DNA of 63,918 nt, filler included, from Hausera hauseri (taxonomy: Eukaryota): assembly GCA_046269625.1 (NCBI GenBank). It is 12 parts of 12 records of this genome, joined end to end, with 100 filler letters (N's around TTAATTAATTAA, not from the genome) between each part and the next. Parts side by side here need not be neighbours in the genome. Positions count along the whole stretch, not along the records: positions 4,547 to 9,214 come from JBJURY010483020.1; 11 more parts are not named here. One strand, given 5' to 3'. This document shows, piece by piece, positions 4,547-60,261 of the stretch (positions are counted from its first letter, which is position 1; every line of letters starts with the position of its first letter). A program made the position numbers and the translations under genes. Below the pieces are notes generated by a model. It saw nothing but the letters and a program-made list of their open reading frames with translations. It made no database searches and was not told the DNA's origin.

Positions 4547-4800
4547 TACCGAAAGATATGACGTTGCAGTGCGAGCTTTGTCAACATTTCTTAATCCTAC
4601 AATAGATAAGTAGAACAATCCATGCCGAAAATAATGCTTCTCGATTATAATCCACAGACGTGCTGGTCAGCAGATGATCCGCGTTGGACCCCGCCTGACA
4701 CAACTGACTTTACCAGGGGGTGGTGATATTATGTCCACATTCACCCAATAAAAAGAAACAAAATCATATGGACATTTCGTTTCTTGTTTAAATAAGCATA
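4547..4800 (+). repeat. 3' end of unnamed repeated ORF (ORF-X), G-rich tract and TGTRGTGCCCAC-like terminus at 4727
   Basis: Translates MPKIMLLDYNPQTCWSADDPRWTPPDTTDF. Aligns by eye with the reverse complement of 8515-8720 and with 33290-33450. Confidence 0.75.
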
Positions 4801-5359
4801 GTAGTGTGTGCGCAGTTTATGAAGTTTTATCAATACAATAATTTTAGAGACTTTAAGTTCATCCTGTTTCTTGTTGCTGTTTGAGTTCATTGCAACAATC
4901 ATTATATATTAGATGAATGGTCCAGAAATTTCATATGTGATTACTTAGCAATCTACATGAGTAATCATTATTTTGAGTTGGGTAATTAAAGTTTTGTTCT
5001 ACAATCAGGTTTTCCACCATTGTTAGGTATGAGAAGTAATTCATTAGTTCAGCTAACCTATGAGTAATTATTAAGTGTTCGTCTGTCTAATTCGTCGGAG
5101 GGTCCAGCAGTAGGCATGTTTTCTAGTCCTATTAGCTATGAAGATTATCTACTGGTTGAGACGCAAGCGGATTAGCCATAGCACTACCACCCAACCGTGT
5201 AGCTTAAAGAAAGAAATGTTAGATAGGAGAAAGTCAATATTAGGGGTGAGATTAGGAATCTTGAATTATTCAATATGACCAACTCCCGCTGTATATTTGG
5301 GGGTTGGCATTTTACTGGTTTTATTTCTGATGTCTTTAAAGTCAATCGGAAATATAGTT

Positions 5360-8095: not shown

Positions 8096-8514
8096 TGTAA
8101 TTATGTCTCATAAACTCCAAATATTCCGTTTGTTCATCCGTAACATCATCACTAAGTTTAGATATCTCATCGATCGAATTCTCTTCGCCATAAATATCTC
8201 GTTCCATTTTGTTAAATTCATGAAGATCTGAGTCGGTAAATGATAACTGACTAATTTCATCTTCAATTGAATTGAGTGAGGCATTGTTTGAACGATCATT
8301 TTCGTCATTATCTAAATCTATATCCACTACATCAAAATCCGTGAATTGAAAAGCTATGGAATTTCATATGAAACAATATGAATATTAAAAATTGTTGTAC
8401 AAAGAAAATTTTTGAGAAACTTCAATAACTAAAAAAGTCGAACTCCATTTAAGTGTTATTTATTTAAACAATTAGCTTTTTTGCCTCCTTCACAAACCCA
8501 ACATGCAGATTAAC

Positions 8515-9190
8515 AATTGGGTGAATGTGGGCACCACATCAACCCCCTTTGCAAAGTCAGTTTTGCCAGGCGGGACCCAACGTGCGTCTTCTGATACCAA
8601 CACGCCGGCGGACTGCAATCAAGAAGCATTATGTTCGGAATGGCCTGCTCTACCCCACCACCATGGGACGAAGCAATGTTGGCGAAGCTGGCATTGGCAA
8701 CACCGCATCTTTCGTCACACCAGGCGACGCGATAGACATAGCTAAAAACAGAGCACAGTCCTTTTCTTTCCAACTTTTCCGGAGATTTCGTGACGAACTA
8801 TTTAATGAGTTCTGGATATGGGCCGTAAAATGTTCGAAAATTTCTGCTTGGATGAGCTTGCAAAGTGTTTTGATCAAATCACATGTCGATTTCTGATGAG
8901 TATGTGTATTGGATCCTTCTATATCTTGACGAATATACTCTGCTGAGGAAGTGCGATGAAAATCGTTTAAACAATCGTCGGTTTTTAACATTTTATTCGG
9001 TGGCCGATCGAACGACGAATCGCTATCATCACAATCGGATTTACGCGAACGTTTGTGAGATTTGTGAGAAGGCAGATCGTTTGGGCTATGAGATTTGTGA
9101 AAGAGACCTGTTGGAACCCGACTGAATAATTGGGTAGTCCGGGAAGCATGAGAAAGATAGAGGGGTAGGGGATGTATATAGTGTATATAT
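8515..9190 (-). repeat. ORF-X family copy carrying an internal host-gene fragment
   Basis: SHKRSRKSDCDDSDSSFDRPPNKMLKTDDC matches SHKRPRESDCDDSNLSFDGPHNKMKEIDDC at about 15030-15120. The C-terminus CW..EDARWVPPGKTDF matches IWLPEDLRCVPPGSTN at about 15595-15645. Confidence 0.8.
8710..8946 (-). pseudogene. CSE1L: Exportin-2 (CSE1/CAS) internal fragment, about 80 codons
   Basis: AEYIRQDIEGSNTHTHQKSTCDLIKTLCK...SWKEKDCALFLAMSIAS is colinear with the CSE1L signature as I recall it: [29 protein letters not shown]...NWKHKDAAIYLVTSLAS. Confidence 0.85.
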
Positions 9191-9314
9191 AAATATATAT
9201 AGTATATATAAATGNNNNNNNNNNNNNNNNNNNNNNNNNNNNNNNNNNNNNNNNNNNNTTAATTAATTAANNNNNNNNNNNNNNNNNNNNNNNNNNNNNN
9301 NNNNNNNNNNNNNN

Positions 9315-14620: not shown

Positions 14621-14762
14621 CTACAGTACATTCAGTCTCCCAAAATATTGTTATGTATAATATTAGTAGTATATCAGACAATATAGACGGATCAAGGGGA
14701 AGGGGATACCAAGATCGTACTGCACACAGTCGCTGTGAAACGGACAGAAGTCCAACATTTTA

Positions 14763-15675
14763 ATGGTCACGCACCCACTAGGATCAATCGTTTTGCATCA
14801 GTCGGTGGAACCAGGAGAGACCAATTTTCTAATAATCGAAACACATCAAACAGACTTTTACATGCCATTTCTACCTCTCTGGGAAATTCAGAAATTGCTT
14901 TATTTTTCTAATGACGATGCACGGGACATGCATAATTTTACTTCTGTCAATTCGACCAATACCGAGAAATCTAAATCATCCCATGACTTAGAGAAAACAA
15001 GCAACTCAAACTATTTGCATTATCGCGAATCACACAAACGTCCTCGGGAATCCGATTGTGATGATAGTAATTTGTCATTCGATGGGCCACATAATAAAAT
15101 GAAGGAAATCGACGATTGTTCGAACAGCTTCTCAGTGCATTTGCTTACGACAACAAATGGCGATGGATATATAAAGCCTAAATCTAAAGTATATCTTTCA
15201 TCAAATTGTTCGAAATTATTCTAAATTATTCTAAAAGTTCGCTGGATCCGGACAATACGTTGAATTATCATAATAACAACAAGATATCTTATGAACATCT
15301 GAGTAACATTCAGTCTGTCAGAGCAGTTGAGTCGAATTTGAACGCAAAAATACCATCCGTTGGGTGAAAAATCCTACTAGTAACAATTTCTGCTCACCTG
15401 CCTCGCTCGGTAAACGTAATCTGAATTCGATCAGTGTTTTATGTATTGGTGGTGGAATGCCGACTAATGCGAAAAAGATTAAAGCGAATCAAAAATAACC
15501 CGAGTTTGCCCATTTGCCATTTACATCTTGGCTTCAGTTGCAACACAACAAATCGGTGTATAACGGAAATATGGTCAATCATCAGGATTCAAAAATCTGG
15601 TTACCAGAAGACCTTCGGTGCGTCCCTCCTGGCAGTACCAACTGTGGGAAAATAGCTCCAACGAGAGGAAGATAA
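14763..15675 (+). pseudogene. ORF-X family, most complete copy (unknown protein, decayed)
   Basis: Contains both the SHKRPRESDCDD block and the WLPEDLRCVPPGST C-terminal block shared with other contigs. Confidence 0.65.
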
Positions 15676-23234: not shown

Positions 23235-23492
23235 TTTTAAACACAATTCTTCATATAATATCAACAATGTTCATATGATATCAACCATTCATACATTTTA
23301 TATTTACATATGCACGCACACACACTTATACATTATATACATTCTTTTCTTATCTATATCTCTCATGTCCTCCGAATTACCCAACTAGTCAGTCAGGTAC
23401 TAACACTCGCATTACTTGATCAAGAAGAAAACACGATATTTTTATAAGATTTATTAATACAAAAATACAACACGTCATAATAAAGATATTTA

Positions 23493-26400
23493 CATTAATG
23501 CAACATGCCCCTGAGGTAGTATGCTTACTCCATTACGCAGGATCTGCCTTTTGTCATCCATCTAATCTAGGCTTTCCTTCTGTAATGTTACTGTCTCAAT
23601 GTTATAAGCCCTAGACTGGATCCTTCGCATCTCTGATATGATATGAATCTGTTCATGTACAATTCTCACATAGTCATCGAAGCCAATCTTCTTGGCTAAG
23701 GTCGTCCTTTGAACCCCTTTAGCCCGCTTCTTTACTTGAACATATACATGAAGGGCATACATTTTGGACCTAAGAACCACAAATCTCGAGATGATTGCCA
23801 CATTCACCTCGTCTTTGAATTTGCCTAGTCAGGATGCTCCTTCGGCTAGTCAGACGTATCCATATGCTGAGCCAACTTAGCAAAGTCCTCATAAATGTCC
23901 TTTGTATGGATCTGATAGATGAAACTATCAGTATCCATATACATCAGCTGTATGGACTTGAATGTGGGAACCATGATATCATAGTGGAATTTGTACATCA
24001 AGGTCTTTGACAGGCCTAGTATTGCCATACCCACATATATGGGCTTGTTAAATTGCAAAGATGTTTTCAGCATATGGACGCTGACCAAGTTCGCCGCATA
24101 TATGATGCTGCTGTGGGAGTTGGGCTTGTCAATGAGCTTCTTTGCCCGCTTCCACTCAGAGACCAGTTCGATGTTTATACTGTTGCGGATATTCTCCATG
24201 GTCTTGCCGAAAACGCTGTTGTTGTAAAGCTTGAACTGGTCCTTCTCAAAGTCGTTTTTGGCATTGGTCTGCAGCTTGGTATTGAGATCTATATAAGGCT
24301 GCAGCCAGTTGGACTGGCTGAACTGCAGGGCCCGATGGATTTTCATAATGCGGAGTCCGTTTCTTACCGCCTGATGGAGATTTATGTGGTGGACTACATA
24401 CCGCTCCCTACTATGCAGATGGCAGAGCAGCTTTCTGTTTTCCATGGGGCGGAGACTTGCTCCCAGGGAGGAACGGCAGCTGTTGATACCGTGTGTGGAT
24501 AGAAACCGGATATTCCGTATCCACCTCCAGTATGCATCCGTATCTCCAGTGGGATCCAGGTCCAGTATAGGGATGTCTTCAGGATGCTCGACCCATTTGA
24601 AGTCATCATAGGGCAATGGGACATTTATTTTTCATCCATAAAAGTTGTTGGCATCCAGGTATGATATATATATGAGGATTCCTTTGATGGATCATACTGG
24701 ACCATATATTTGTTGTTGGCCTCACTATAAGGTGAATGGCCTGGCATATTACGCCTCTAATGCCTCTCTCAATCATGAGAATTATGTCGTAATCCTTTAT
24801 GATCTGCAGCCTAATACCTGTATATTTCAGCATAGCTGCCAAACTCATCCCTAGAGCCGTAAAGAAATGAGCCGGATCCAATGCACGGCTCTATCGTAAC
24901 ATCCGTGAAACTCTCAAACGCATCCATCAGCAGCAGCACGTCCGTCCTGAGGTATATATCGCTGTATTCACCTAATTTTCGGCATTGGAATGCATTCCAG
25001 ACGTTCGGAGCATGCTGGTAGTCCATGTCACTGAAATCGCAATCAGAGAGGATATTGTAAAAGTCCTTCTTGGTCGACAATGAGGTCTCATCCAGTGTTT
25101 TCCATTAGGTTATATAGTCATAGGGAAACATGCCTTTCCTTTTAACAAGGTCAAATGTAGTACTGAAGAACCGGTTAGTCCCCTTGAGTTCTTCTGCATG
25201 GAGGTTCTTCACTAAACTGTCAAGTGAAGACAACATAAAATGGAAACTGTCTACGAAGCGAAACCTTATTTTCTCAAAATACTTCGTAAAGGTGATGTAC
25301 TTCTCCTCACTGTTAGGGATCACATCAATGTTTCCTTCAATGCTGTCCAGTTCCCGAACAATGAAACGGGAATCATAGCCACTGAGATTATGGAACACTA
25401 CAGGCACATGTGTACATGTTTTGCAACGTAGATTGCAGTTGTTGCATGCCGCGCCCCTATATGTGCCTGTAAAATGGCAGTGATCCCTGACTTTATAATT
25501 CTGCTTAGTGAATGATTTGGAGTACAAGTAACGTGCTGTTTCCTTATGCCATTCTTCTTGCTGCTTCGACATGCTCATGTCGTCCTTATGCTGCTGCAGC
25601 ATATCTCCAATCTTATGAGTCATATCTTCAAGTCGTTTCATGAAATGAGCTGCTGCGCCTGAACCCATGAATAGAAATGGCTCACTGTCCAGTCCTTTGG
25701 CATACATGCAATATGATGAAAGGTCATCATATTGGTATGCCGTTGTATTGCTATGTTGGGGATTAGGACTGCAACCCTGAACTGTACGCAGGATCGCTTC
25801 AAAGTCGCAATAGATAACTACTGGGACCTTGATCTTCTTCTCGAACTCCTTGAATTCAATGTAGTCCTCCTTGGGAAATTCCGGCCTGATACAATAATTG
25901 TTGTTGCAATACATCTTGTTCTCTGCGAACTTCAATACAGTTACATTGTCGTTGAAATGGGACAAGCATCGTTTACATATTTCTATTTGTCCATGATGTT
26001 TCGTAATTTGTTATCTGACTAGATACTCAAAGTCTTTGATCCAAATATAATGTTTCTTTTCTCCATCGTCTAGTAGGAGAAGATCCCTATGATCTTCCAA
26101 TTCAGTATCGCATATCTGCAGGGATAAAATTTGTCCTCCTCATCCAATATAAAGATATTGATGGAAATGTTGTTGACTTTTCCAAATTTTTTGACTTCAT
26201 CTATGGATGGAGGGAACTTGGTACATTGGAAATCATAGTTATGTTGCACATACTTATTTAGCCAAACTCGTGAAGCATGATTTTGATTCGTTACGAGTTT
26301 TCATAGAATGGCATACATGAAATACATGTTGTCGCTATTATAGACATTGACACATGCTTTTTATTAGCGATCCAATGAGGGAGCTGAATATATAAACTGT

Positions 26401-26787
26401 CCCGCATGGGGGAATATTTGTGCACATACACAAGCAATCTCTTTATGGTTATCAGAGTCCAGCCGATCTTCTTATCCTGGCTCTCCTGCTTCACGGATCA
26501 GCTTCTCGTGCGCCTCTTGCAGCCATTCTGCTATATTGGTGTTTTCCGATATTGGCCTATATTTGGTCTTGAAGGCCCTATTGGATTCTTTGCCATCAAC
26601 ATTGATGCATGTGGCCTCCAGTTTCATATTAATTTTAAGGGCTTTAAGCTTAGCCATGTTGTCCTGAAGAATTCCCTCTGTCTCGTCCTTTGTGTATAAG
26701 AGCAAGTCTTGGAGGGTTGTTTGATCAGTTGCATCAAAACATATCTGCGGCATTTTCTCTTTAATGATGTCACTTCAACTGACCGCT
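23493..26787 (-). mobile_element. polB: Polinton/Maverick-type protein-primed DNA polymerase B pseudogene
   Basis: YCDFEA (Exo I), VRDHCHFTGTYRGAACNNCN (endonuclease VII-like insert), FHNLSGYDS (Exo II), RKGMFPYDY, DVLLLMDAFE, YLDANNFYG-like, KLYNNSVFGK, YMDTDS. Many frameshifts. Confidence 0.93.
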
Positions 26788-27430
26788 TGTGGTGCCCACT
26801 GCAGCCCGTGCCCTTTGGCCCATTTTGGTTGGGCATGGCTGGGCGTCCGTTATCACCGCGTCGGATCAGTAGTAGGGTACGACTCTCCGCCTCAAGAATT
26901 TTACCCACTGGATTGGACAAATGACTATAAGAGGAACTGTCAGCAGAATTAATCAGTGTTCTCAATCTAGGATACGTTTAGAAGTCATCGATGGTCAGAA
27001 CCAGTTCGTTCGCAACATATGTAGCACCGACGATCGTAGCATATCATACCCGTTTGCAAAATTCTTTCATACTCTTCAACATTCAGTACATTCAGCTGAT
27101 CCAATTTCTCAGTTTTATTATTCGATTCATCAATAAAACGCTCCGATAATATCGAGTTCTATCACTGCCAACAAATGTCCAGATTCGTCTCAAAACCAAC
27201 TCCTTAGTCATCTAAATTCGTCGACAAACGTCGTTTCCTGCGTTTCTAATGCTAATCCACTTAATCCGATTTCTATTAAACCGGTTCCCGCGCCAATCGA
27301 CACAAATGGTCAATCTGTTACCAATCTTCGTTGTTTGTCAGTTAGTAGCAGTGCAAATGAAAGTAACTGTGGAGCGAGCAATACTTCTGTCAGAAACACG
27401 CCTAAAGAAACGCCAAATATTTATAAATTG
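26788..27430 (+). mobile_element. Repeat starting TGTGGTGCCCAC that cuts off polB; GC-rich leader then Ser/Asn-rich decayed frame
   Basis: 26788-26905 aligns with 35820-35940; both translate AGRPLSPRR. Confidence 0.6.
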
Positions 27431-29678: not shown

Positions 29679-30450
29679 GTGAATTCCTGGTACCTGTGTC
29701 GAAGTCGAACGCATCAAGTTATTTTGGACAGATCAAAAGAACGCCTCGGAAGTACATACAGTCAAAGCAATAATTTCAATTTAGGACGTCTGAAGGCGTT
29801 CAGAGTATCAAGGGTAACAATCGGCTCTTAAATTAAATCTTATCTGAAGAAAAATATCAGAATTAACATTTTTTGATGAAATGTCCAGGAATTTTTCAAA
29901 ACAAAAATCCATGGTAGTCCGATATATGTTGGGCAAATTCACACAGTCAATGAAATTCCCAAATACAATTTCTGATTAACATTTTAATTAACTGGGAATT
30001 ATTGATGACATTTTTTTTGATTATTTGGTCTTTGCAAATTTTTCTCAGTTTGATTTTATTCGTTGATTTTTCATTAATGTGAATTTATTTACCAGTAAAT
30101 TTGTCTTATATTTTTCCCATCATTGTGTAAATCAAATCGATATAAATACTGATTCAATTTTAGTTCCAATACAACAATTTTTATTGAAAAACGATGCAAA
30201 TGTTATTTGTTTATGACGGATATAAGCTCCATTGAATCGCTTAAATTTGAATTTTTTTATTTAATACTGTTGTTTATTTCATGTTACCATGACAACATAT
30301 TTATAAATAAGGTCGCGTGTTCAAACTTTAGCTAAATAAGTGAGAGTCGGCCAGTGTATCTCCTGGTGTCGTAACAACCCACAGGTTGCTAATTGATTAA
30401 ATAAAGTTTCAATGTCAAAAAGTCGAGAAACCCAAAACATATACACGTAC

Positions 30451-31590
30451 CTTAAAATACTTCACTCGCATGTAGTTACGCTTCAAAAGACTTTCCAACT
30501 CAAATTCCGGATCTGTAGAATTGAGAAAAACAATTTCAATATTGGATTTTTCACGATCTTCGTGGAAAAAATCCGAAAGAAACGATTGAGCCATCGTAAA
30601 AGTTACGTTCCCACAAACAATAACGTGCTTTCGATCTGCACGTTTTGCATATGATCCCGAATATGGCGATGCCGAAAATAGAATATTTGATATTTCTGGA
30701 ACGAAACTGGCAAACATAGCAAATGCAGTCATAATGAACATGCAGATAAAAACACGACCGAGTGCTGATTTAGGAACGATATCGCCGTAACCGACTGTGG
30801 ACATGGTGACGATCATTGCGTACAGACAGTCACCCAATGGCAAAGAGGGGGTAGCAGAATTATTCGGCATGGCCCATGGATCCCCTGTATTTTCTAACAA
30901 TTGATACATACCCGCTCCTGTAATCCAGACACATATGAAAATGGCAACCATTTGACAAAATCGGAGTTTCAACGGGGCTTTGATGATTCCGAAAAATTCG
31001 CAGAAATCCGATAGTTTGATGAGCCAAACTGAGCGAAAAAATCGCAATCCGGTCCAATACTGTTGGATCGCTAATTCAACGAAACTATGAGGAACGGTAA
31101 AGATGTCTGAAAGGGTGTATCGGTCAATCCAAAATCGCGGGTTACATTCAGATGACACAAGTCGAAACATAAAATAACACGCAAAATAACAGTTGCAGAC
31201 CAAATCGATATAGAGTAAATATTTCCGATCGTATTGTTGGAAACATACAAAGATTTGCGATGGAAAGGCGAATGCTTCATAAATGTAAATGACCAATGAA
31301 AGGAGGGTGCATAGAAAAGCAAAAAATACGAATATTTTCCCCGATGGGGTTTCTCCAGAAATGAATTTATTGATTTTTAATATGGTGTCTTCAAATCCGA
31401 CAATTTTCCTTGAATGCCATTTCAGCACCGATGTTGATGATTCACTTTTTTCTTTGAAACGCTGTTCGCAGTCGAGTACTTTCTGTTTTATGAAATAGTG
31501 CCAGACAGTCGTTAGAATGACTCCTGTGGCGTAAAAGACGAGATCTGTGGCTATGAAGTAGTACCATAGGTTGTCGATGCATAGAGACAT
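30451..31590 (-). CDS. slo: Slo/BK large-conductance Ca2+-activated K+ channel, first exon (S0-S6 and start of RCK1), divergent
   Basis: ISGETPSGKIFV, IDLVCNCYF, GLRFFRS (S4), LENTGDPW, TMSTVGYGD selectivity filter, AMFASFVPEI, KHVIVCGNVT, FLSDFFHEDR. Donor AAG|GTACGT at 30450. Confidence 0.95.
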
Positions 31591-32444
31591 TAGTTGGTAC
31601 CGTTGATACGATTTGAGATTAATTAGTGTTTAATGATGTTACTGTATGCATACTGCATATAAGTTTAGTCAATAAGTGGGGATGTGTGCGTTAAATATTA
31701 TAGACTTCTGTTTCTGTTATAAGTCATTTGATTGTGCAATTTTAATTGCAAACACATCTCCAATTTCTTCCATTCATATACTAGAGCCAAAGGATGTGGA
31801 GTACATTTAGCAGAAATTTAATTTTCATAAGACAACAATTCAAAATAAACGTTACAACAAACACGCAATAAATTGAAATTGAAAGGTCACCAGTCAATCA
31901 AAGTAAATATCGTGTACGTTTAGTAATAGAAAAAGAACTACGAGTAAAACTCTCCTCAATGACTCTTCAATTTCATAAACTTTGTGACAGTAATTGACCA
32001 CACACCAATCTTACTAAACGACCATTTTTCAAATTTAATTTGATTATTGATTATTATTTGAATCTGTATTAAATGGTATGCCTATCTGTTGTTGGCTATC
32101 TGGAGAAGCTACGGCTGAATTGACGGATTATTTTCGTAATTACTTTTTGATTCATTGTGGTAATTGACTTTGTGAATAATATGAGAATTGTTTTTCAGTG
32201 TTTTTATTGTTAATTGTCATAGACTGACTTTAACTTTTTTATTCTTTATTAACTTCGTTATCGATTCTTCAAAATTCTATACGTAATTAATAAAAGTTAG
32301 ATTGCATGGCATAGATATCGCTGAAATGGCTTATTGGGACATTAGTCGTACCGGAATCGGTTATGTGAAAGATATTGCCATGTTTAATATGTTTAATATC
32401 CAAAGCGGAACATTACTAAGATCTATATGCTTTGTATTTTTTAG

Positions 32445-55871: not shown

Positions 55872-56063
55872 ATCTATAATTAATGATAACTATTCAATTA
55901 AATCTAAAACACAAAGCTCCATTTCGATATTTTATTGAGTATTTTTGAGAACTTTTACGATTTAAAATTTTTATTTCGAAAATAGATTAAAACAGGTGAA
56001 AAACATAAATAATGCATTAAATTAAATTATTTTATCCAGCTTTTAGAGTTTAACTATTTATCA

Positions 56064-59000
56064 ATGCTGATTTGGTTATTTTGCATTGCTGCATTTAAAC
56101 CGTGGAAAGCAAATAGTCTAACGATATCTTTTACAAAGTCGATTTACCGTGTGAGCATCTATCAAGATCAGAACATTCGAAATTATGTTGTTCATTCGGA
56201 TTTTCAAATGGGAATTCCCCAACCAACGGGTGAAAATGGAACGATCCAATATCGAATTCGGGAATCATCAGACATTATCAATACTTTTGTTGCTGAAAGT
56301 CGCTTAATCGGAGCATTTGTCTATTTACGTATTCGTACGAAATATTATGCCAACATCAATCGTGAACGCAAAAGCCATTACAATTTAACAATAAACGGAC
56401 AGTTTTATTCGAAACTTTATGAAAAGATAATTGTTGAAACGAATTGTTCAGTTCTAGTCGACGTATTAGACACCAATGACAATTGTCCGATTTTCACTAA
56501 GGAATCGTTTGAATTCGTTGTGAACGACAATTCATCGATTGCATCGATGATCGGTACCGTTTCGGCAACGGACGCTGACGACGGAATTCATTCGGAAATC
56601 TTCTATTTTTCCAAAGAATTAGCGATAAAATTGAACCAACGGGAATTTCCGTTTGCCATTGATCCGATAACCGGTGCCATTTATCCAACGGAGAAACTTT
56701 ACCGATTTGCCGGACATCGTTTGTCGACGAAGGTGTTCGCCATTCATCGAGGCGATTTGAGTCTGATCAATTGTGACGTTATCAGTCAAACTCAGTTGTC
56801 AATAATCGTCCGATCACCCAATGAACATTCACCGGATATTACCGTACGTGAACTGCCGCAATATTTCGATATATCCACCGATGATTATCCATACGCACAA
56901 ATTACCGTAACGGATGAAGATGACAAACAACGCATCCATCGTAACCCATATCCAATAATTGTTACGTCATCTCAATCATCGGTGTTCGTTTTTCTCTCGC
57001 CCACCGATCGGATAAACTCGTACATTATGAAAATTCGTACGATATCTTTATCCGTTCCGATCAACAAAATCAAAATCCAAATCGACGCTTGGGATTTCGG
57101 TACGCCATCGAAAAAGACCACCAATGAATTTTTCGTCAATCTCCGGAAAACTGTTCGAAATCTGAACATGCTTACGTCATTTCCCGATCAGATCACTGTT
57201 CAGATCCCGGAAAACGTCTTAATCAATTCCAGCATCTATTTGTTACGGCCTCATTTCCGATCGATAAATCCCGACAGCATTTATCAATTGATGTTTTCAT
57301 TCATTCCCGATCCGAATGGAGCATTTCTGAACAGCGATATTGCACTTTCGTCAACGGGTGTCGTGTCGGTTATGAAAGAATTGGATGCGGAAAATTACGG
57401 AACGCGAGAACGAAACTATACCGTTGGTGTTTCGTTGAAAGACAGCAATGTCAATGACGAACGATCGTTTCAATTGCGAATAATTATCGACGATTTCAAC
57501 GAATTTCCACCGATTGTCGCTAACAATTTGACGAGAATCGCCATTGGCGAATCGTCCGCCATTGGAACGTCGATTTTGCAAATCGACGCATTCGATCCGG
57601 ATATCAGTCGAACGGAAATGAAATATTATTTGTACGATGAACAGAATTTACCGTTTAAATTGGACGAAACGAATCGGAAATCGATCGTTATCAAAGCGAA
57701 TCTCGATGCGGAAACGATGGCGAGAATTATTCCATTACGAGTATTGGTATCGGACAGCGGTTGGCCATTTGCTCGATCGGTTGTTGCGCATTATGAAATT
57801 GAAATCGGCGATGAAAACGAATACAAACCGGAATTTCTTTATCAAAATTGTACGATTTACATCAGCCGATCGTTGAGATACGGTTTTAAATTGGGTCAAT
57901 TTCTCGCCGAAGATTTGGATCGAGACGGACGACAACGAGTAAAAGTATCATTATCGTCCGTATCGTTCAGTGAACCGTGTTTTATGATCGATCCCCGATC
58001 CGGTTCACTGCGAATACTCTGTTCATTACGGAACAAAGCATTCCGAAATGTGCACAATTTTACGATCATTTTACGAGCAACCGATGGTTATTTCCAATCG
58101 GATGATTTACAACTGCAAATAATCGTCATTGAACCGCAAACGAACAAAACAACAAACCAATTACCGATTCAACAGAACTGCAAAGAAAACAACATTTACT
58201 CACGACTCCAACGGAATTTCGACCGACTCAACGAATGGAAACGGCACGATTATCAACAACAGCAGCAAACAAATCGCATTCGACACCGTCCAAAATTCCT
58301 GTCCAACATTCCAAAATCCATACACTTACGAGAAGAATTGCCGACGAATTACGTCATTGCCCAAATTGCCATGGAAACCGAACAAACAACCGGCAATCCG
58401 TACGATTCATACTTCATGTTCGGTATCCAATCCGACGGTGACGATCAGCTATTTTCAATCAATCGAACATCGGACAGTACAGCACAAATCATTGTCCAAG
58501 ATCGAATTGATCACGAACGACAAACCGTCCATCGGTTAACAATTCGAGTTTGTGATCAGAACAAAATCCGATACTGTTCAACAACGAAAACCGAAATCAA
58601 AGTCGAAGACATCAACGATAATCGGCCACGATTCGTCGATTCGTTCCAGTTGCCTTTGGAAATACCGGAAAATTATCCAATCGGACAGAAATTCGTTCTC
58701 GTTGAAGCTACCGATTCCGATTCGTTCGGTTCTATTCAATACCGGCTTGCAAATTTCCGGAATGTTTTTCGAGTACACAAACGAACGGGCTGGTTGAAAC
58801 TCAAATCGAAATTAGACCGAGAAAAACGGGATTTCTACGAATTGCTCATAACGGCATCGGATCAAGAATCACAAGGAAGATCATTAACGTCAACGTTGGT
58901 ATTGAAAATCAAAGTCCGCGATGTCAACGATAACAAGCCGATATTTACGAAAAAGAGTTATACACTCTATTTACCGGAAGATTTACCAATCGGCAGTTTT

Positions 59001-59421
59001 CTCGTTCAATTGCTGGCAACAGACGCTGATTCCGATCAAAATGCCGAATTGCATTTTACACTTCACGGATTACAATCGGCTTGTTTCCGTTGCGATGAAT
59101 TGACCGGTACTATTTATCTCCAATGCAAATTATCCCCGTCAACCGAATATCGACTCATAGCACTCGTTAAAGATAATGGTCAACCACAAACGCTGTCCAG
59201 TCAAGCGGAATTTACGGTGTACGTACAGAAAACGCAATGGAACATTCATCCACCGTTTCTCAAAGAACCATTGATTGAAGTGCAAATTCCTGAAAATTGT
59301 CCACCGGGAACTCTTGTTACAAAATTGACCCCTGAAGATAAAGATAAAAACATTCAGAATTTTATTTATACAATAAGCGGACAATCTAGTGGGATATCTG
59401 TTTTTCAGATTAATAGGAAAG
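56064..59421 (+). CDS. Fat2: Fat-like giant protocadherin (FAT1-3/Drosophila Fat2 type), first coding exon, about 10 cadherin repeats
   Basis: Signal peptide, Fat-like N-terminal signature FVAESRLIGAFVYLRIRTK..INRE, repeated LDRE/ATDxD/DxNDNxP motifs. Probable donor AAAG|GTTGG at 59422. Confidence 0.92.
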
Positions 59422-60261
59422 GTTGGAAACTTAAACTTTTATATATATAAAACTAGAACTGTGCTAGAAATAAATACCACACTTAGGCGTATTTGTTAAT
59501 AAAGTTCACTATACTGTCACTAAATATAGTAACACAAAATATTCAATACCCCTCACCCTAACTAAAATAATACGAAAGTTACTAAGGAAAATAACTTAAA
59601 CTGAATTTCAACAATTCCATACCACTCCACGATTGACTCTGCCATTTCAATTTGAAATATCTACATTTTTGCGAAATCAATCGTCATTCAATTGTGCCTT
59701 AANNNNNNNNNNNNNNNNNNNNNNNNNNNNNNNNNNNNNNNNNNNNTTAATTAATTAANNNNNNNNNNNNNNNNNNNNNNNNNNNNNNNNNNNNNNNNNN
59801 NNTACAAGAATACTAGAATCATATATGTAGATGAAATATTTTTTTGAAACTATTTTTTTATTTCCTACCTAACCAACTGCCTTAGAGCTAACTCCTAATA
59901 ATCCCGCTTGGCTGCTCACAGAAACCAACGTAAAGGAACAGGACTTACCCGGAACTTGTCATCAACTTCCTCACGGCAATCCTTCCGCACTTGGTTCTCC
60001 ACAGTCGTTTGGTATTCACTGCTTTCAAACACACAGGACAGGAGAGTCTCTCGTTCAGATAAATCACCTCTTGAAATAGCACTTTCGACGACACTGCACC
60101 TTCCTTTAAGAGCCTTTCGTCGTGACCAAAGTCTAATTCACAGGTCGATAAGTTCACAGTTCTGAACACAGTTGTGGGCTATGGATTCGGGCCTTTTTTA
60201 CGAAAGCACCAAATCCCAACACGGCTGCCACCACTAAATAGTTATCTCTCTATTATACTGC

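Follow-up and report, generated by a model that had tools for sequence, protein, structure and literature searches.

The window analyzed here, a stretch of 63,918 nucleotides from Hausera hauseri, consists of short contigs strung together by spacers of N44 + 12-nt linker + N44 (e.g., 9215-9314), and the two sides of a join are not neighbors in the genome. Its minus strand contains, between 8096 and 9112, a copy of a repeat family in which the middle of the family's open reading frame, termed ORF-X, has been replaced by a piece of exportin-2 (CSE1L). A second CSE1L-carrying copy is found on the same contig, and a copy devoid of CSE1L lies elsewhere in the window. The individual parts are as follows.

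4550..4956, plus strand: second CSE1L-carrying copy, 3' end only (remnant, tail, polypurine tract and LTR), end approximate; 148/201 nt matching 8516-8714
8096..8538, minus strand: 3' LTR of 443 bp, TG...CA, common to loci L004/L007 up to 8096
8539..8550, minus strand: polypurine tract, a G-rich run that abuts the LTR start in copies
8551..8606, minus strand: ORF-X 3' tail (W.PED.RWVPPG block); ~8599-8564 matches ~15598-15634 in 29/37 nt, a score reached by 0/500 shuffles
8607..8656, minus strand: CSE1L remnant 2, host codons ~648-671, boundaries approximate and taken from junction alignments of natural copies
8668..8941, minus strand: CSE1L piece 1 of the capture, in the sense orientation of the element and covering host codons ~368-459; Pfam Cse1, E 2e-18; 217/275 nt matching the host locus L031
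8942..9112, minus strand: 5' part of ORF-X (SHKR..DDC block), which continues into the captured piece without a change of frame and is the same flank as that of the other capture copies; 8946-9083 is 77% identical (107/139 nt, E 5e-24) to 15007-15145
9109..9214, plus strand: other LTR-like repeat that interrupts the element; homology to the element family ends at 9112, and 9109-9187 matches 23327-23405
14720..15642, plus strand: "empty" copy of ORF-X, an internal part of the same element family that has no CSE1L and is truncated on both sides; 40/40 scored contigs match, from 1357 candidates

A sequence-only reading had described this interval as an in-frame capture of exportin-2 within a repeat-family ORF, and this identification is borne out. 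The minus-strand frame 8653-9213 matches Pfam Cse1 with the E value given above and yeast Cse1 in the PDB with an E value of 1.5e-7, and the DNA match to the host gene (79%) covers 8941-8668. The piece is in frame with the upstream SHKR..DDC block, and both flanks are of the ORF-X type, the 3' flank having been missed by blastn. CSE1 is the best match, a genuine CSE1L gene is located on another contig, and more than 100 other contigs contain the chimera with the same junctions. The replacement of the ORF-X middle had been recognized correctly, but its size, given as about 80 codons, needs revision: piece 1 comprises ~92 codons, but a 1-nt deletion at 8719 leaves no more than ~74 of them in the frame of ORF-X, and remnant 2 (~8656-8607) has to be added. 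The latter is the 3' end of a capture that was originally 912 nt long and corresponds to what in-frame deletions of 561 and 12 nt have left. Comparison with the sister copy L003 revealed the deletion at 8719 and a further 1-nt deletion at 8595. With two frameshifts and a 5' end interrupted by another repeat, the focal copy is dead, which excludes the functional chimeric protein that had been proposed for it. Its contig stops inside the interrupting repeat and includes neither its primer site nor its 5' LTR, and behind 9112 the sequence of 15 contigs of sequencing run X1 continues differently. The final 220 bp of the focal 3' LTR are also present in LTRs that bear a Rab6 mRNA piece, and L003 has an LTR end of the focal type both upstream of its primer site and at its own 3' end.

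The genome assembly (869 Mb, 909,086 contigs) contains a single full CSE1L gene, an intronless open frame of 955 codons on contig C780647 (locus L031). Since the donor gene has no introns, their absence from the captured piece, previously taken as a sign of mRNA origin, carries no information on an RNA route. The long form of the capture comprises 912 nt (codons 368-671) and is ~90% identical to the host gene; short forms have kept ~285 nt as well as the last 50-60 nt. A Cse1 profile search of the contigs resulted in 111 matches from 257 candidates, which is a lower bound. Apart from the host gene itself, these at least 111 matches fall into a separate N-terminal family with 10 pieces and the ORF-X family with 100 members, and the latter family accounts for more than 100 false CSE1L paralogues in the assembly. 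The N-terminal family (L076-L085, e.g., G000:C621798) is a second, unrelated repeat family that carries the N-terminal third of CSE1L (host 751-1607) and is characterized by a common 45-nt deletion, variable 5' ends, and one 3' tail; no similarity to ORF-X was observed in it.

A total of 135 loci with the captured piece were examined, leaving out four duplicate loci and the host gene. The piece begins at host positions 1850-1866 in 102 of them, and another 18 represent a deletion form that keeps this common 5' junction, which is thus found at 120 loci; the remaining 15 begin elsewhere (contig edge, deletion, or KSR insertion). Capture copies are 10-21% diverged from the host gene. A tree of 87 copies and the host gene resolves a long clade and three short subfamilies (A, B, and C); its stems are long and its tips star-like, and the focal copy falls into subfamily C. 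As judged from these sequences, CSE1L was likely captured in one single event and then amplified. Over 267 nt, the long and short forms have just three derived changes in common, all of them synonymous, suggesting that the two forms split soon after the capture or that one of them was later refreshed from the host sequence.

The carrier of the CSE1L piece is a small non-autonomous LTR retrotransposon with a single ORF, namely, ORF-X. Paired TG...CA terminal direct repeats were identified in L016, L050, L061, L071, L003, and other loci. In L016, CSE1L is located between two LTRs that are 92% alike, and the element has a perfect 5-bp target duplication. Perfect 5-bp target duplications were also found for the empty copies L050 and L061; that of L071 matches at 4/5 positions, and none was seen at L055, where it was looked for. 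The primer site consists of 12 nt complementary to CCA and the 3' end of a genomic tRNA-Leu. The corresponding pattern had 44 matches and 0 in the control, and ARAGORN called a tRNA-Leu in 1/5 loci scanned. Copies start (primer site) ~474 or 321 nt upstream of the CSE1L junction, and the tail pattern of ORF-X has 61 exact matches genome-wide and 0 in the reversed control. LTR length ranges from ~110 to 800 bp in the family, 5' ends of host mRNAs are carried in the LTRs, and at some loci the 5' and 3' LTRs are unlike each other. The internal part is 0.7-1.3 kb long, or longer when it contains KSR, and the entire element measures 1.2-2 kb. Pfam retro domains are absent from the internal part, and no autonomous partner was identified among the 40 ORF-X core loci examined of 150 listed. 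LARDs are a comparable class of non-autonomous LTR elements.

In empty copies, ORF-X is one frame of ~300 codons. It has neither a Pfam family match nor a usable match in the Atlas. A query with residues 1-120 of the L073 frame, weak because this part lies outside the conserved core, found no homologue among proteins of 138-440 aa. None of these negative results is evidence of novelty or of absence. At 20/47 sites an ATG in the ORF-X frame is present a few codons upstream of the primer site, within the last 30 nt of the LTR, from which it appears that the ORF begins inside the LTR and runs through the primer site.

The nature of the carrier also bears on the capture route, for which template switching onto a host mRNA and Pack-type capture had both been proposed. 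With an LTR carrier, a Pack-type DNA transposon (Pack-MULE, Pack-CACTA) is ruled out and template switching becomes the favored route; when copies were compared with themselves on both strands, the only terminal repeats that appeared were direct and not inverted. A Helitron carrier is likewise ruled out by the LTR anatomy. In comparison with empty copies, the flanks of which are just ~77% alike, the 5' junction of CSE1L has no clear microhomology, and only 5/6 nt are in common at the 3' junction. Directly behind the 3' LTR, L035:1800-2300 and L135:2475-2975 contain coding sequence of the RNA polymerase second subunit and of Nup85, respectively, which represent either insertions into genes or further cargo.

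Further cargo was sampled in 40 of the 150 listed ORF-X loci, chosen for the length of their contig or for long frames. About 10 copies that are 93-96% alike (L197:1928-3382, G000:C265842; also L234 and L237-L245) contain a nested capture, in which the ORF-X core, a KSR piece, the CSE1L remnant, and the tail follow each other in one frame. The KSR piece is composed of a C1-like part and a kinase, and its best PDB match is KSR2 (E 1e-61). Both KSR junctions have 6-8 nt in common, the KSR flanks being read from other repeat-borne KSR copies, and a 555-nt deletion observed in the family has 11 nt in common; both would agree with template switching in this family, as would the Rab6 piece described below. 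A host KSR donor gene was looked for in the genome and not found. Another repeat-borne KSR piece (L247-L253) has an internal deletion and an LTR-like head ahead of it, and it is followed downstream by a piece that we take to be an Aurora-like kinase.

The LTRs hold 5' parts of host genes that begin ~130-190 nt into the repeat and start at start codons. These include Rab6 (L008/L160-L168), a talin-like FERM piece (L004/L172-L182), an LRR piece that is presumably Scribble-like (L012/L015), TTC7 (L023), a weak Nup35-like match (E 0.04; L007/L024), and a piece that we assume to be CEP164-like (L005). Cargo was sought by sense translation, which biases the observed orientation toward sense. A genomic Rab6 gene has introns of 39-45 nt that the LTR-borne Rab6 piece lacks; this gene, 77-86% identical to the LTR piece and differing in its N-terminus, is possibly a paralogue. 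A long ORF on C102209 was discarded as talin donor, as it has no DNA-level match to the LTR piece and was not shown to be talin; a search for a host talin donor gave no other candidate. The Rab6, talin-like, LRR, TTC7, and Nup35-like cargo is in the ORF-X frame, but the talin, LRR, and Nup35-like pieces were found via in-frame translation, which leaves Rab6 and TTC7 as unbiased cases, 2/2 in frame. An apparent frame bias of LTR cargo (20/26 types, P 7e-6) was rejected as it is biased by the conserved LTR end; when this end is left out, the bias is not significant (13/26 types, P 0.06; 11/26, P 0.22).

All large rearrangements common to at least two copies (10/10, with 3-nt slippage left out of the count) preserve the frame, namely, both capture junctions, deletions of 153, 561, 12, 555, 39, and 51 nt, and both ends of the nested KSR capture. 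The 5' capture junction is in frame together with a 1-nt loss ~22 nt upstream, and 28/30 empty copies are without this loss. By simple arithmetic, the chance of ten in-frame events is (1/3)^10, but this value is too small given that microhomology between coding sequences can by itself favor in-frame joins and that the KSR family was initially chosen partly for its long open frame. Private indels within the CSE1L part are in frame in 5/37 cases, and the primer-to-tail length is divisible by three in 33/72 single copies, a loss of frame that is expected for decay after insertion. Subfamily-level changes, defined by the commonest letter of each subfamily, column by column, amount to 212 (CSE1L part, 121; ORF-X core, 91). 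None of them is a stop (9.4 expected, P 8e-5), as compared to 45 stops among 1099 private substitutions (Fisher P 3e-4). Among alleles seen twice in short copies there is no depletion, with 8 stops versus 5 expected.

The ORF-X core is under mild constraint, with an omega of ~0.45 between subfamilies (P 1.5e-4) and an N/S ratio lower than that of private changes (P 3e-4). For the CSE1L part omega is ~0.7, a value that is partly due to synonymous change on the host side, and there is no difference with respect to private changes (P 0.18). The CSE1L residues drift almost neutrally, and the purifying selection of a functional retrogene was not observed. Together, the in-frame rearrangements, the absence of stops on the source lineages, and the near-neutral drift of CSE1L suggest that the source elements were likely selected for an open frame and not for exportin function. 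Small frameshifts common to several copies speak partly against frame selection: of 62 short copies, 4 have a -2 indel at one repeat site and 7 at another, a -1 indel in a T-rich run is present in 8/65 copies, and a few other frameshifts are found in pairs. Those of the common small frameshifts that were placed on the tree span several subfamilies, which would fit recurrent slippage at repeats.

The explanation that we consider probable, with a fair margin of doubt, is that the focal locus is a dead copy of a non-autonomous LTR element that likely captured CSE1L once through a switch to its mRNA, the source elements of which were likely selected for frame, and in which the cargo serves as neutral filler. 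A related but rather unlikely explanation retains the same capture and assumes that the frame is kept because the element needs a protein containing the N-terminal core of ORF-X as well as its C-terminal tail, between which the cargo is tolerated as a linker. The omega and N/S values of the core and a tail block that is in frame in the empty, CSE1L, and KSR forms would agree with such a protein; however, an omega of 0.45 is a weak signal if the protein is to be functional, linker length varies between ~340 and more than 1200 nt, and the tail adjoins the polypurine tract and may be conserved as RNA. In addition, ORF-X is without a Pfam match, an Atlas match, or a homologue for the single region searched. 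Entry of CSE1L at the DNA level, by ectopic recombination or break repair from the intronless gene and prior to retrotransposition, is improbable. The clean, sense-oriented swap of an internal ORF, the microhomology at both KSR junctions, and LTR cargo that starts at start codons and is without introns (although the cargo search is biased to sense) argue against it, whereas an intronless donor makes DNA and mRNA indistinguishable, the 5' junction has no microhomology, and the gain of fragments by ectopic recombination at transposons is reported for Drosophila in the available part of Weisman.

Little probability is assigned to the possibility that the piece persists because it supplies small RNAs directed at CSE1L, in analogy to the nxf2 piece of Drosophila TART, a precedent described in the available portion of PMC13534243. 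Frame conservation would be left unexplained, the lineages drift from the host gene (79-90%) and lose most of the piece, and the cargo corresponds to general housekeeping genes and not to silencing genes. Long copies and copies of a third type do have a median of 43-44% of 30-nt windows with at most 2 mismatches to the host, but only 4/206 such windows of the focal copy are that close, and the same portion of PMC13534243 reports almost no host-gene piRNAs at ~79-82% identity. The small RNAs that the sequence-only reading envisaged are hence predicted to be unlikely from the focal copy and possible from long copies. That the chimera arose by misassembly, given a fragmented genome built from short reads, is suggested by the 909,086 contigs and the unlike 5' and 3' LTRs at some loci, but virtually no weight can be given to this idea, which is already refuted at the family level by one junction at 120 independently diverged loci, 10-21% divergence from the host gene, and target duplications. 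Contigs of run X1 also span the 5' junction, although this run is perhaps not independent of the assembly; in sequencing run X2 (organism B, share 0.10), which covers some of the stretch, the junction is not bridged by 31 letters.

Under the favored explanation, a capture by mRNA switch, a reverse transcriptase supplied in trans would have left the element RNA after copying the tail, as in the model of Tan et al. 2016, copied 912 nt of co-packaged CSE1L mRNA, and gone back to ORF-X. Mobilization in trans would be due to an autonomous Gypsy-type element. The chimeric product would then have multiplied and, in agreement with the statistics given above, only sources with an unbroken frame would have left many descendants. 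Their frame would be open all the way between primer site and polypurine tract, the captured piece being neutral filler. The frame constraint may originate from a cis requirement for translation of the element RNA, since translation would spare this RNA from premature-stop surveillance or piRNA processing, possibly helped by the weakly conserved N-terminal core of ORF-X. Such a requirement is somewhat preferred over the need for a protein with both ORF-X ends. Ordinary premature-stop decay would give a frame filter of this kind. A similar filter would be supplied by planarian-type PIWI processing if this animal has the same pathway; according to the available text of PMC10954484, transcripts that are translated poorly in planarian stem cells are converted to piRNAs by a PIWI protein during the pioneer translation round.

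We tentatively extend this view, at slightly less than even confidence, to a translation-gated gene-shuffling vehicle, which would be copied only if its RNA can be read without a break in a single frame that opens at a start codon in the LTR, crosses the primer site, and reaches the polypurine tract. All host pieces would thereby be filtered for frame and mass-produced as multi-gene fusion ORFs without host selection. If so, the filtered pieces would comprise CSE1L, KSR inside CSE1L, and, in the LTRs, the 5' ends of Rab6, talin, the presumed Scribble-like gene, TTC7, and the Nup35-like gene. The data suggest that it is translatability and not the function of the captured piece that lets copies spread.

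The capture process itself is already known, as seen in the accessible parts of the reports on animal LTR-mediated retroposition (Tan et al. 2016, PMC5131818), where host mRNA replaces part of the internal ORF between LTRs, and on maize Bs1 (PMC13317346, PMC5131818). As compared to these parts, what is new here is the scale, the age, and the evidence for selection on frame rather than on cargo function. The family described here has in common with the cases of Tan et al. the replacement of an internal ORF, non-autonomous recopying, multi-parent chimeras, and sense orientation. However, few insertion sites per retrocopy are described there and in-frame ORFs are ascribed to youth (<1% divergence), whereas the ORF-X family has more than 100 copies with 10-21% divergence, serial in-frame deletions, and no stops on source lineages. 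The median microsimilarity of 6 bp in that study also differs from its absence at the CSE1L 5' junction. Bs1 is, as far as the available text of both sources describes it, equally an enzyme-less LTR element with several host-gene pieces in one hybrid ORF, but it is a transcribed and translated chimeric gene with one parent out of frame; in the ORF-X family, the cargo is near neutral and was exchanged (CSE1L, then KSR inside it), and the parent frames are retained.

Short LTRs, a primer site, a polypurine tract, a 5-bp target duplication, an apparent absence of gag-pol, and a size of 1.2-2 kb are features that the ORF-X family shares with TRIM/Veju elements, and TRIM elements are known to transduce genes (available part of PMC13317346). 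The internal part of TRIM and LARD elements is non-coding, in contrast to the single conserved open frame of ORF-X, and the family differs further by LTRs of ~110-800 bp with host mRNA 5' ends. Another parallel is that of TART-nxf2 and related telomeric captures, for which a piece of a host gene, of the nuclear-export type, is likewise present on many retroelement copies. According to the accessible portion of PMC13534243, these are non-LTR telomeric elements with pieces of 140-235 bp, mostly from piRNA genes, that act via small RNAs, whereas the ORF-X cargo has no bias toward piRNA genes. In a literature search that left most subscription papers outside its range, no title or abstract opening dealt with frame-selected cargo in a non-autonomous LTR family or with a capture of CSE1L, which does not prove that no such report exists.

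In-frame chimeric ORFs are usually taken as a sign of a working new gene. The ORF-X family indicates that a selfish element can preserve open fusion frames in the interest of its own replication even as the captured protein sequence decays. This provides a path to exon shuffling in which frame has already been filtered and, at the same time, a warning against calling such chimeras functional. It also offers a natural, countable test of whether the spread of non-autonomous elements is decided by RNA surveillance, in the form of premature-stop decay or of piRNA processing that acts on poorly translated RNA.

Other parts of the window were inspected by eye: a decayed, presumably Polinton-like DNA polymerase region is located at 23846-26977, a long ORF with putative cadherin repeats at 56013-59450, and a presumably BK-channel-like exon at 30415-31629.
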